Shown here in pieces: positions 18,389-28,360 of a stretch of DNA of 31,733 bases (positions within the stretch are counted from its first letter, which is position 1; every line of letters begins with the position of its first letter). Source of the DNA: a virus (taxonomy: Duplodnaviria; Caudoviricetes). The DNA lies in the IMG/VR virus record IMGVR_UViG_3300020044_008191, positions 1 through 31,733 of that record; one strand, written 5' to 3'. The notes beneath the pieces were generated by a model. The model saw only the letters and a program-made list of their open reading frames with translations. It was not told the DNA's origin and did no database searches. The translations under genes were made by a program, and so were the position numbers.

Positions 18389-18895
18389 CTAAATATTTTT
18401 ATAACGTTCTAATCTTTTTATTTTTCCTATTGTTGCTCTATTAACTAAATAAATTTCAGCTAATTTAGTTTCACTTAGTTTACTTTTCCTAATATCAATA
18501 ATATCTTGTTTTAAAAATCTACTATTATAATGTTCAAATGCTTTTTTAGGGGTTCTCAATCCTATTAAATCAGCGTGCCTAATGTTTTCACTACGTGTAC
18601 ACCATTCTAAATTACACAATCTATTATCTGATTTAATGCCATTAATATGATTAACGTGTGGTTTGTTTTCTGGGTTGTCTAAAAAAGCTAAACAAACTAA
18701 TCTGTGAATAGTAAAACTTCTTAATTTTTTATTTTTAGTTAATGTATAATAAACATAACCTAATTTATTAGTGTTGCTTTTAATAATTTTACCATATACA
18801 GATACTTTATAGCTTTTAATCCTTCCTAAATTAGAAACATAATAATCTCCATCAAACCCTTTAATTTCTTTCCATATTTCAGTTACTTGATCCAT
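18389..18895 (-). CDS. NUMOD4-HNH homing endonuclease
   Basis: EIWKEIKGFDGDYYVSNLGRIKS (NUMOD4) and IHRLV...VNHINGIKSDNRLCNLEW (HNH). Confidence 0.92.
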   Translation of the reverse strand: MDQVTEIWKEIKGFDGDYYVSNLGRIKSYKVSVYGKIIKSNTNKLGYVYYTLTKNKKLRSFTIHRLVCLAFLDNPENKPHVNHINGIKSDNRLCNLEWCTRSENIRHADLIGLRTPKKAFEHYNSRFLKQDIIDIRKSKLSETKLAEIYLVNRATIGKIKRLERYKNI

Positions 18896-19241
18896 TATTG
18901 AACCTGTTTAAGATAATCTTTATACGCTTCTAAGAATCTGTTTTTTTGTTCTTCACTAACTCCGTTACTTTTTCTTTCGCCTCCTGATAAATCCATAAAT
19001 TTATCCATTGTTTTTGGCAATTTCTTATAATCCTGATAAGGAGCTACTAAAGCATTATATGCTACTAACCTAAACTTTTTCCAGTCTTCTAGCTGCATCC
19101 TTTTATAAGCAAAAAGGCGAATTTGGAACTCGGCAAAGGTCATGTCATAAACATCACTTAATCGCATAATTCCAAGCTCGCCACACGCAAAAGCTATAAC
19201 ATCCTTTTTAAAATCTATTTCACTGCCTTCGCTTTTTTTTT
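18895..19241 (-). CDS. Tail assembly chaperone GT extension (reached by -1 frameshift)
   Basis: The frame of 18895-19167 stays open upstream to the A9 run and reads SEGSEIDFKKDVIAFACGELGIMRLSDVYDMT. Confidence 0.8.
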
Positions 19242-19550
19242 ATCTTCTGGAACTACAGGAACATCTTTAAACATTGATTCGTTAAAAGCTATCTTAAAGT
19301 CAAACCAAAATTTACCACCAATACCTCCGTTATCATCAATCAAATCAAAAATATCAATCAACGTAAAATCGATATCTTTTCCTTCTCTTTTATTAGCATA
19401 CACCCTAGAATAGTACATTATTTTAGGCATAAGAATTTCGTCTGGCTGTGCCCCTAATTCTTCAATTTTCAAGCCTGTTCCGTCTAATAATTCATTAAGG
19501 AATCCGATTCCAAAATGAAAATCAATTCCTAATAAGTTTTTTTTATTCAT
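19215..19550 (-). CDS. Tail assembly chaperone G (start revised to MNKKNLL)
   Basis: Follows the major tail gene; ATG at 19550 lies just after the upstream stop; ends EDKKKAKAVK. Confidence 0.8.
   Translation of the reverse strand: MNKKNLLGIDFHFGIGFLNELLDGTGLKIEELGAQPDEILMPKIMYYSRVYANKREGKDIDFTLIDIFDLIDDNGGIGGKFWFDFKIAFNESMFKDVPVVPEDKKKAKAVK
19233..19241 (-). other. Programmed -1 ribosomal frameshift site (A9, containing A AAA AAA)
   Basis: GAT AAA AAA AAA GCG; a -1 slip joins G to the downstream frame as in lambda G/GT. Confidence 0.8.
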
Positions 19551-19554
19551 AAGA

Positions 19555-19995
19555 TTAAGCTTCTGGGTCAACCGTTACAATCGCTCCGTCACCTTCTAAA
19601 GTAACAGAAAAAGTACTAATTTCATCTCCTGCTCCTTGGTCTAAGGATAAGTCTGATAAAATAGCCGACCCATAATAAACAGCCCCGGTAACCCCTGTAT
19701 CAAGTTTCCAAACAATAGGGAGTTTTGCTTGTTGCTTAGTTAATAAATAATCATGTGAAGCCTTTGTGGTTTCACCTCCTACAGATGTCGTATCGATGTA
19801 CTCTCCTTCTGCGTCAATTGAATAGCTAAAAATTCCAGCTTGTTTTTTAACTACACCCGGAAAGCATTTTGTTTGTGATTCAATTATTGAAACTGCCGAA
19901 CTCAAAGAATTAGACGTTAAGCACGCAACTGGTCGGTAAATAGTGCCATCGTGTACATAAAGAATCCCCACTTCTCCTTTTACTGGTAATGCCAT
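19555..19995 (-). CDS. Major tail (tube) protein
   Basis: Canonical position; C-terminal YYGSAILSDLSL...TFSVTLEGDG motif. Confidence 0.85.
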   Translation of the reverse strand: MALPVKGEVGILYVHDGTIYRPVACLTSNSLSSAVSIIESQTKCFPGVVKKQAGIFSYSIDAEGEYIDTTSVGGETTKASHDYLLTKQQAKLPIVWKLDTGVTGAVYYGSAILSDLSLDQGAGDEISTFSVTLEGDGAIVTVDPEA

Positions 19996-26098: not shown

Positions 26099-27493
26099 TT
26101 AAAAAAAGAAAAAATTACTATCTATTAAATTCCGCTCAATACCATAGCACGTCAAATCGATATGCTCATCGTGTTTTCCGTTTGGGAATATAGCAACTTG
26201 ATGTAAAAAATGTTCGTTCCAAGCTCCTTTTATTAAAATTACACGACCACCTTCTATAAAATGAGAACAAGCCCTTGCATTTTCTATTTTAGAACTGTTT
26301 ACAAATGTAGTTTTTATTTCTGCAATATTTACACTTGTTTGTTGCCTAATTATCTGTACAATAGACTTTCCGCTAGCTTTTGGCTCAACTAAAGACAAAG
26401 ATACATCAACTCCACTTATATTTATATGATTAGGTATGAATTTAATTAGCTCAGGCATTTCTAAATATTTGTCAATACTAGACCAAATCACATAATTATT
26501 ATCCCATTTTGCCCCAATCTGGAATCCAGAAGGGTCGTTTTTAGTGTCTTTAGTATATGCTCCATCGATTATTAATTCCCATTTTAAAGACTGTATAGGA
26601 ATTTCGCTTTTGTCCATTATTCTAAACCAATCTTTTCTCCATTCTCCACCCTCAGCAGGAGCAGGAGTTTGCATATATTGACCAGCAAAATTATAACGAT
26701 TTGCTTGTCTAATTTGCTCTAATTCTTGAAACGTGTGTTTGTCTTCCCACAACGGATTATTATTGTCGTCTAAAGCAGGCAAACATAAATGTGTCCATTC
26801 TTCACCGCTTCCACCTCCTAAAAGAAAGCCGCTTAAATCTTCTTCATGCAATCTCTGCATTATTACAATTATAGGTGTCTCACGGTCATTTACACGGCTT
26901 CTAATCGTTGAATTATATCTTTCGTTAACTGCGCTTCTTTTAGCGTCCGAATTTGCATCATCAGGCTTTAATGGATCATCAATTATAATTGCACCTGAAA
27001 ACATTTCACTTTCGGCTACACCGGCTCCAAATCCTGTAATTGCTCCCCCGCTGGCAGTAGCATAAACACCGCCTCCTGATTCATTAAACCACTTCTTTTT
27101 TCCTTGCGCGTCTTTCTTTAACTTCATTTTCCATAAAGCTTGAAAAGGCTCTGATTCTATATATTCTTTTGTTTGGCTTGAATTATCTAAAGCTAAATCA
27201 TCAGAATATGATAAATGTATAAATTTTGAAGCTGGATTTTTAGCCAAGCACCAAGATATAAAACATTTCACAGCTAATTCAGTCTTTCCGTATCTAAGTT
27301 ACGGGGGGATGTTAATAACGAGCCTTTTTATTTTCCCGTTAAAAACATCCATCAATGTATTAGATATTAAACTTAAATGTTTGGTTTTTATAAAATTTCT
27401 TTTATGATTTTCTTTATATATATACCTAGTGAAAAACATTAAATCGTTTTCGCATTTTATTTTTATGATCTTTTGTTCGTTACTTAATATCAT
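26099..27493 (-). CDS. terL: Terminase large subunit, interrupted by an in-frame TAA at 27299-27301
   Basis: One continuous frame reads RLVINIPP*LRYGKTELAVKCF; Walker B IIIDDP, IMQRLHEED and C-terminal HDEHID nuclease motif are intact. Confidence 0.9.
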
Positions 27494-27995
27494 TTAACGC
27501 GTTTTGATAAGCGTTGTGCGCTTGTATTTCTGTTGCAAATCTACCTAAATATTTTCTAGTATTACCAATTCTTATTTGAGATTCAAATTTACCTTTATTT
27601 TTGCGAACGCCTAAATAAATACTCGTAGTGCCTCTTTTTGTTTTACTACAATTAATTCTATTTGTCGTTATTCTTAAATTATCTAAATAATTATTTAATT
27701 TATTTTCGTCAATATGGTCTATGACTTTTTTATTTGTTTTATCTGGTTTTAGCCCTAAAAAACAAATCCCCATTAATTGATGAACGTTGTATTTTTTCAC
27801 TTTACCTCCTTCAGATAAACTAATGTATATATAGCCTGTTTTTTTATTCAAAGTAGGATTTAAAATTCTGCCTACTAAAAATCTTATTCCAAATCCATTT
27901 GCGTGTGGAACGTCTCTTGAAATACTTCTAACATTTCCGAAGTTAGATATTTGATAAATTCCTTCGTATCCTAAAACATCAATATAATTTTCCAT
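27480..27995 (-). CDS. NUMOD4-HNH-AP2-like homing endonuclease (start revised to MENYIDV)
   Basis: GYEGIYQISNFGNVRS (NUMOD4), IDHIDENKLNNYLDNL (HNH) and SIYLGV...YLGRFATEIQAHNAY (AP2-like). Confidence 0.88.
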   Translation of the reverse strand: MENYIDVLGYEGIYQISNFGNVRSISRDVPHANGFGIRFLVGRILNPTLNKKTGYIYISLSEGGKVKKYNVHQLMGICFLGLKPDKTNKKVIDHIDENKLNNYLDNLRITTNRINCSKTKRGTTSIYLGVRKNKGKFESQIRIGNTRKYLGRFATEIQAHNAYQNALNDIK

Positions 27996-28058
27996 AATAA
28001 AAGAATCCCCAACGCTCACCACGAACGAAAGGGATTAAAAGTTAAGTGTGGTGAATAA

Positions 28059-28088
28059 CAAATATACGATTAATACTTAGATTCCAAA
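28059..28088 (-). promoter_or_regulatory. Promoter for the HNH-AP2 gene
   Basis: TATATTTG (28059-28066) and TTTG (28085-28088). Confidence 0.6.
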
Positions 28089-28360
28089 CTATAATTTATT
28101 TTTTTTATTTCTTCATCTGTAAGTTTTCCTGCATCAATATTTTTATTAGTCTGCTCTACTATTTGCTTAGGCATTCCGTAACGATAATTTAACCATGTTT
28201 TAATTGCTTGTACGTCCCCGTCCTCTACTTTACAAGACAAAGCCATCCATACAGCTTCAGGAATCATGACAGCGTCCATTTGCTCAGCTATTAAGATTTC
28301 ATCTGCTTTAGGCTTTCTACCAGCCCCTTGTCTTGCTCCTCCGTGTGAATTTTCCGCCAT
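28070..28360 (-). CDS. terS: Terminase small subunit
   Basis: HGGARQGAGRKPK N-terminus and GDVQAIK...YGMPKQ; upstream of terL. Confidence 0.7.
   Translation of the reverse strand: MAENSHGGARQGAGRKPKADEILIAEQMDAVMIPEAVWMALSCKVEDGDVQAIKTWLNYRYGMPKQIVEQTNKNIDAGKLTDEEIKKINYSLESKY

Follow-up and report, generated by a model that had tools for sequence, protein, structure and literature searches.

A short stop-containing insert in the terminase Walker A motif recurs in related phages and may be skipped by a ribosomal stop-hop

Gene order and the interrupted Walker A motif

The window, by which we mean the whole stretch of DNA analysed here, is an IMG/VR virus record of 31,733 nt that is rated 82% complete. 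Its minus strand carries, in this order, an open reading frame (ORF) of 96 amino acids (28070..28360), a free-standing NUMOD4-HNH endonuclease gene (27480..28022), the gene for the large terminase subunit, terL, and the portal gene. The first of these, which has a marginal PHROG match only, is a terS candidate by its position and forms the left border of the variable cassette. The endonuclease gene, with a GTG at 28022 and an ATG at 27995, overlaps the start of terL by 14 nt; its product matches Pfam NUMOD4 (E=1.5e-13) and HNH_3 (E=6.5e-8) as well as PHROG HNH families and is likely, from these domains, a homing nuclease. An inverted repeat at 27989-28041 (minus strand), which gave a sub-threshold Rfam hit to CRISPR-DR66 (30.5 bits against 45), surrounds the start of this gene and may form a hairpin that limits translation of the nuclease. 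A second HNH endonuclease gene with matches to PHROG HNH families is found at 18389-18895 (minus strand), where it follows the ORFs of the tail module that presumably encode tail chaperones. In the same module, a run of nine A residues at 19233-19241 (minus strand) lies near the end of the ORF at 19215-19571, and from this run the -1 frame stays open up to 18895, where the next ORF ends, as would be expected of the usual tail-assembly-chaperone -1 frameshift.

The terL gene runs in one frame from ATG 27493 to TAA 26099 (464 codons), and its sole internal stop is a TAA at 27301-27299. At the Walker A motif the minus strand reads ATC CCC CCG TAA CTT AGA TAC GGA AAG ACT, which translates to IPP-stop-LRYGKT, so that six extra bases including a stop lie within the ATP-binding loop. 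The gene is thereby divided into ORF1 (27299..27493), with 64 codons ending in I-P-P before the TAA and PHROG terminase matches that reach the profile start, and ORF2 (26099..27295), which begins at the putative resume codon AGA (27295-27293), reads R-Y-G-K-T and contains the remainder of the ATPase and the nuclease domain. ORF2 matches the PHROG terminase large subunit with E=1e-73 and is open to its end. All seven short homologous proteins found (clusters of 64-68 aa) end in INIPP. The interrupted gene is the only terL match within the window record. The next ATG, GTG or TTG after the internal stop is GTG 27271, 7 codons past the Tyr of YGKT, and there is no table-11 start codon between the stop and YGKT in this gene. 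The first-pass annotation, which was made from the letters alone, had the minus-strand reading, its coordinates, the common frame of the two terL pieces and the position of GTG 27271 after GKT right.

The second Pro codon of IPP, CCG (27302..27304), is the putative take-off codon; it is followed by the in-frame TAA (27299..27301; TAG in relative L001), the first half of the insert, and by CTT (27296..27298; CCT in some relatives), the putative landing triplet. Two hairpins are predicted around these codons. The small one (27288..27304) has a 5-bp stem, a 7-nt loop and the take-off codon in its 5' arm; it had been described before as a perfect 5-bp hairpin and folds with -5.0 kcal/mol. The larger 5' hairpin (27307..27350) consists of a lower stem of 7 bp (27350-27344/27313-27307) and an upper stem (27341-27335/27322-27316), and is separated from the take-off codon by 2 nt and from the landing codon by 8 nt. 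This larger hairpin, as well as a one-nucleotide allele described below, had escaped the first-pass annotation.

The window's capsid protein shares 72% identity with its counterpart in Flavobacterium phage 11b, so that the host is likely a flavobacterium, in line with the earlier guess. Protein and DNA searches found no cultured phage with a close terL (the best had about 40% protein identity), and no host genome with a prophage copy was found among the GTDB genomes, where all six pattern matches were unrelated sequence.

Recurrence, alleles and mobility of the insert

Our comparison with related terL genes revealed that the six-nucleotide insert is real, conserved and mobile. A search with the downstream protein yielded 23 viral loci, two with the same insert, 20 with an uninterrupted [IV]PPRY[GS]KT and one in which the region is missing. 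Pattern scans that allowed inserts of 1-30 nt hit terL loci in 10 of 11 viral, 10 of 21 metagenome and 0 of 6 genome matches, and one further terL insert locus was found with a different upstream codon. These scans returned inserts of 1 and 6 nt only and none longer than 6 nt; after CCG-TAR, every terL match among those listed (at least 119 stretches, from 39 of 64 parts of the data) had 6 nt. The Walker A site was intact in 72 of 80 terL loci examined, and five of the eight missed ones were intact on inspection. Together with an insert-less comparison set of at least 120 listed terL loci, clustering at 97% identity gave 127 groups: 110 insert-less, 15 with the six-nucleotide insert (window included) and two with a single extra nucleotide; as the carriers had been searched for by pattern, the shares should not be read as population frequencies. 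The same insert is present in other IMG/VR and JGI contigs and in Logan contigs of runs X2, X3, X5, X6 and X11 (five studies), which span it without gaps and extend 31 letters or more to either side; runs X7 and X8 cover the site with fewer than 31 letters on one side. We therefore reject a sequencing or assembly error as the source of the six bases. The first-pass annotation had considered that the insert might be unique to this contig, and it is not (15 of 127 groups, five other studies). Within the window there is a single exact copy of the 17-nt hairpin motif, and 8 of its 12 viral matches are this terL site. The other four (L028, L030, L034 and L032) lie outside terL in contexts unrelated to the site, three of them in one related context; we take them as chance matches and reject the hairpin as a free-standing mobile motif.

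Across the carriers the site varies in a restricted way. The six-nucleotide allele has the consensus CCY CCG TAR CYT AGR TAC GGN, with C always following the stop. TAA or TAG stands directly after the second Pro codon in all 17 insert groups, and the take-off codon is CCG in 15/15 six-nucleotide groups compared with 5/110 insert-less ones. The triplet after the stop is CTT in 14 and CCT in one of the 15 groups, and no other Leu codon occurs there, TTA being the main Leu codon of the phage (361 against 79 CTT), while silent variation is seen all around it (TAA/TAG, AGA/AGG, CCC/CCT, GGA/GGT/GGC). Such a triplet is more in keeping with landing of tRNA-Pro than with decoding as Leu; since insert variants number only four, the lack of synonymous Leu changes rests on few events. 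CCT appears in two backgrounds: in L163, which reads CCG TAA CCT AGA and thus Pro-stop-Pro, and, through A>G at 27297 among the differences listed, in one window-like contig each of runs X6 and X8. [quoted passage not shown] In 14 of the 15 six-nucleotide groups, including the window, CUU mismatches the CCG pairing at the middle base, where a G-U pair would be needed, so that the efficiency of a hop should be lower.

Two related records, L159 and L166, have an out-of-frame one-nucleotide allele, CCT CCC TAG A TAT, which comes with the same 5' hairpin and with an HNH gene; the pair shows 100% identity over 698 nt and may therefore not be independent. Over 27286-27447, a contig of run X7 that includes the end of the HNH gene lacks 5 nt relative to the window, a length consistent with this allele; by inspection, the L163 allele equals the one-nucleotide allele plus five bases. 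L159 has a further ORF directly after terL, about 1.3-1.8 kb past the Walker A Tyr, the start of which resembles NUMOD4 as judged by eye. In L187 (record G005) the sequence CCT CCT TAG A likewise contains one extra base; its terL is distant and otherwise intact, with neither hairpin nor HNH gene. This case may be a sequencing error, and a +1 slip there would land on CUU.

The cassette seems to behave as a mobile unit. A related HNH gene lies between terS and terL in 6 of 17 insert groups and in none of 110 insert-less groups, 73 of which have at least 800 nt upstream. With this amount of upstream DNA the numbers are 4/12 carriers against 0/73 (Fisher p=2.4e-4, the groups not being independent), and 2 of 5 carrier groups with shorter upstream sequence also have the gene. 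Presence was scored with five HNH queries, by which unrelated nucleases could be missed; eight of the 12 carrier groups with enough upstream DNA have no HNH gene. The correlation with the HNH gene that the first-pass annotation had suspected is thus borne out, and the gene is optional between conserved genes, as in a free-standing homing endonuclease cassette. On the final tree of the downstream protein (63 rows, 300 residues, without L187 and three long-branch rows) the insert needs seven changes, at least four of them forced, and a single insert-bearing clade is rejected (p-AU 3.8e-10); a first tree of 67 rows, for which the careful search was unfinished, had given nine changes, at least seven forced. 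Repeated loss combined with ordinary recombination is a possible alternative source of this incongruence. Over the 60 nt 5' of the insert L163 and L026 are 100% identical, and their downstream 150-nt windows are 76-84% identical. L029 compared with insert-less L272 is 90-100% identical from -180 to -90, 66-70% from -60 to 0 and 83-96% downstream. By these profiles, about 60 nt before the insert seem to behave as a donor, or co-conversion, tract; intronless homing and co-conversion have been described (PMC2988022, in the text available). In run X1, an 855-nt contig follows window positions 26453-27289 with one difference and then has the insert-less allele (over 18 loose letters only), and a separate contig follows 28094-28347 with one difference and is joined to 27459, the HNH gene being skipped.

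How an intact terminase could be made

Several observations indicate that terL remains functional downstream of the stop. ORF2 is open in 16 of 17 insert groups, in 14 over 396 codons and in two to the contig end; the exception, L177, has a frameshift 32 codons past the site in a contig that contains Ns. For the 250 codons after the site, dN/dS is 0-0.11 in ten computable insert-insert pairs (three pairs were saturated) and 0.019-0.054 in five insert-less pairs; for the window's ORF2 it is 0.059-0.067 against L159 and L001, and 0.018-0.043 among close insert-bearing relatives. As judged from these ratios, which the first-pass annotation had named as a check and which we have for the 3' half, the downstream coding sequence is under purifying selection, although recent homing into working alleles could leave dN/dS low even with a harmful insert. 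Moreover, the 100%-complete insert-bearing record G001 has one terL, which bears the stop, and no second one.

The segment of the 5' hairpin has a mean folding energy of -16.3 kcal/mol in 16 insert groups compared with -5.6 (sd 3.5) in 110 insert-less ones, and the lower stem is complete in 15/16 and 13/110 groups, respectively. Compared with synonymous recodings the window's hairpin reaches z=-6.6, the strongest of 54 windows along terL, and six carrier types reach -3.5 to -7.9 (L187: +0.7). In eight aligned carriers three pairs are changed on both sides, with a covariation score that 0/500 shuffles reach, in a control that can be beaten by related sequences. The hairpin is not exclusive to carriers, as z is below -3 in 14/110 insert-less groups. 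Among these, L216 and L248, which have neither insert nor HNH gene, keep a carrier-type 5' hairpin, and L248 reads CCT CCT AGA; they may be relics after insert loss, or precursors. The carriers fall into six main tract types, L187 aside, and conservation of the hairpin may come in part from shared descent of the tract. The small hairpin gives a different picture: equally good folds occur in 4/200 shuffles at 26 nt and in 106/200 at 61 nt, its stem is invariant across seven aligned six-nucleotide rows, with three variable loop positions, and therefore provides no covariation support, and it is absent from the one-nucleotide allele. It may merely be a scar of fold-back copying.

We consider it probable, with moderate confidence drawn from the comparative sequences, that translation passes over the insert through a +6 stop-hop of peptidyl-tRNA-Pro and that the insert spreads with a mobile HNH cassette. 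The ribosome would stall when the stop occupies the A site and peptidyl-tRNA-Pro sits on CCG, release being slow after Pro-Pro, with which the nascent chain ends at the site; the upstream residues are common to insert-less homologs. Slow release after a C-terminal Pro has been described, an effect that may be species-specific (PMC7246954, in its accessible part). The tRNA would then let go of CCG, aided by the small hairpin competing for this codon, while the 5' hairpin would zip as the mRNA leaves the ribosome and push the ribosome forward. As its stem stops 2 nt short of the take-off codon, the 5' hairpin cannot close as long as CCG occupies the P site. The small hairpin contains both the landing and the resume codon and thus cannot be folded at landing. 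Finally, the tRNA would re-pair on CUU (CCU in some relatives) and translation would resume at AGA, giving the normal IPPRYGKT; for the one-nucleotide allele, we envisage a +1 slip of this tRNA at UAG, from CCC onto CCU. The 5' hairpin is the likely forward driver of such a hop; this role of the zipping stem is deduced from what is accessible of 10.1101/2024.12.09.627546 and PMC6321510, the latter reporting that an upstream hairpin adjoining the shift site stimulates +1 slippage in 70S ribosomes. At the DNA level the insert would spoil the nuclease target, so that carriers resist nicking, and insert-less terL alleles would be nicked and converted during mixed infections. Both the recoding by a hop and the link to the adjacent HNH gene that the first-pass annotation had put forward gain from the comparative data, the hop itself being what we infer.

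Among the alternatives readthrough survives best, and we regard it as unlikely. Here a near-cognate tRNA would decode UAA or UAG to give IPPxLRYGKT, with a P-loop that tolerates two extra residues. The six-nucleotide insert keeps the frame, the invariable C after the stop would suit this reading, and in AlphaFold modelling the fold is preserved when Gln is placed at the stop (mean pLDDT 74.6 against 75.9 for insert-less P0009); at residues 61-70 the pLDDT is 56 compared with 68 in the insert-less homolog, and any insertion opposite alignment gaps lowers this value. No solved structure matched by sequence. However, all of the best 120 full-length homologs read N[IM]PPRY[GS]KTE and none has extra residues, even though the query carried two extra positions, and a 6-nt scan that accepted any two codons found stop versions only (2/2). 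Furthermore, UAA is the main working stop of the phage, TAA ending 19 of the 27 ORFs counted, there is no tRNA gene in the window or five related records, the codon after the stop switches between Leu and Pro but never silently, and a one-nucleotide allele cannot be read through. The readthrough option of the first-pass annotation is thus disfavoured for the six-nucleotide allele and retained as a lesser possibility. The same counts of stops and tRNA genes led us to reject stop reassignment or a suppressor-tRNA phage.

Next in order, and also improbable, is a parasitic or leaky allele, in which the insert is kept only by homing and protection from nicking, TerL comes from an unprogrammed leak or a co-infecting phage, and the hairpins are passengers. 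Since few copies of TerL are needed, even a small leak might suffice. Alleles with and without the insert are found together in the same runs, the tract is mobile, and the 5' hairpin is shared with some insert-less alleles, all of which would fit. But at least six tract types keep the stem by paired changes, one of which couples a silent Asp change with an Ile to Val change, the cassette persists in the eight groups without an HNH gene, and the low dN/dS among close insert-bearing relatives argues against a non-functional gene.

Removal at the RNA level, by host or phage enzymes that cut and ligate a micro-intron or by an RNA polymerase that skips it, seems highly improbable to us. The two adjacent hairpins and the 7-nt loop could be an enzyme substrate, but deleting six loop bases alone leaves the stop, so that part of the 5' stem arm would have to go as well, and a 1-nt intron is implausible. 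The scans for inserts of 1-30 nt returned nothing longer at the site, and Rfam gave no match there, which leaves the minimal intron remnant of the first-pass annotation without support and, with only 1- and 6-nt inserts present, speaks against a group I or other self-splicing intron. A split gene, with ORF1 and a re-initiated ORF2 as separate products that combine to an active terminase, is hardly credible: homing-nuclease insertions have given working split phage genes, Topo2L and nrdA (10.1101/2022.08.31.505936, as far as its text was available), but we reject re-initiation because in 17/17 groups the ORF2 frame contains no table-11 start from the stop to YGKT, and the first ATG, GTG or TTG follows 5 to 55 codons past the Tyr at no conserved position, so that the catalytic GKT would be lost.

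Relation to known recoding and homing systems

Taking the stop-hop and the cassette together, we tentatively propose a wider picture that we regard as quite possible: a selfish HNH nuclease would immunise the Walker A motif of terL with a minimal insert, an essential gene would depend on a natural, hairpin-driven in-frame stop-hop even onto a mismatched CUU, and one site with its 5' hairpin would carry both +1 and +6 alleles, a stepping-stone series from frameshifting to bypassing. Such a case would illustrate the small beginnings from which bypass signals can arise, would put to the test the idea that sliding is driven forward by mRNA pairing at the ribosome exit, and would add a third route of self-protection for homing nucleases, beside introns and inteins. 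The whole signal fits into about 65 nt and comes with natural controls (matched and mismatched landing codons, UAA and UAG, +1 and +6, with and without the nuclease). Moreover, such terL genes risk annotation as split or broken. To our knowledge, few natural settings are established for programmed bypassing: T4 gene 60 with its homologues, the mitochondria of Magnusiomyces and the Hau3 candidates. A literature search, with most subscription papers outside its scope, found no published description of this terL case.

Synthetic stop-hops in E. coli (Weiss et al. 1987) translate 9 nt into one amino acid (PMC5009743, 10.1101/2024.12.09.627546, in the parts available). L163, with CCG UAA CCU, has the same geometry of a codon, a stop and a matched codon, and a hop there would give two residues fewer than readthrough. 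Unlike this terL site, the synthetic examples are, in the same parts of these sources, low-level and come from constructs without stimulators. A 2016 review held that natural in-frame stop hopping could underlie some presumed readthrough and that no natural example had become known (PMC5009743, in the text available); if the proposed hop takes place, terL would be a natural case of this kind, in an essential gene. The one-nucleotide allele, CCC UAG A, resembles the CCC-stop sequences prone to +1 shifts in pheL and in the tail genes of Listeria phages, Q54 and SPP1 (PMC3082878, in part). In the tail genes the shift yields an extended second product (same source, same part), whereas in terL it would be required for active protein and would correct an insert.

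The Streptomyces phage Hau3, StrepC.1 and S. catenulae cases likewise have a short insert at a conserved junction in a large terminase gene. In the available part of PMC10732093, the Hau3-type junction appears in or beside the P-loop (KGWG|KD) and bypass is supported by an E. coli junction peptide. Unlike the terL insert described here, the Hau3-type inserts are led by the rare codon UUA, comprise 7-10 nt, are out of frame and have been proposed as a developmental sensor; they belong to another terminase lineage, and that part of the source describes no homing nuclease for them (PMC10732093).

The closest parallels are T4 gene 60 and MobA. The window's locus is no member of MobA, as it has no Topo2L split, NTE/CTE tails or gap of ~50 nt, and the affected gene is terL rather than a topoisomerase gene, with 6 nt in frame (or 1 nt) instead of 50 nt out of frame. 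Pro takes the place of Gly or Asp, the landing codon is mostly mismatched (CUU), and a C-run of Pro codons stands about 6 nt 5' of the landing site, where T4 gene 60 has a mini Shine-Dalgarno. The T4 5' stem-loop lies 9 nt before take-off (10.1101/2024.12.09.627546, in its accessible text), compared with 2 nt in the window. In contrast to MobA, the nuclease gene lies between terS and terL, the host gene is not split, landing falls within the small hairpin, and the 5' hairpin is conserved here and not across the MobA clades. The site nevertheless would work like MobA. As in T4 gene 60 and MobA, a stop-led insert lies at invariant codons of an essential gene beside an HNH gene, together with a stem-loop whose 5' arm contains the take-off codon and a further stem-loop 5' of it. 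In the MobA case, no phage has the nuclease without the bypass insert, several have kept this insert after losing the nuclease, and the insert blocks nicking (10.1101/2022.08.31.505936, in the part available); in the terL groups, too, the HNH gene always comes with the insert, the insert is retained in nuclease-less relatives, and a short donor tract 5' of it seems to travel along.
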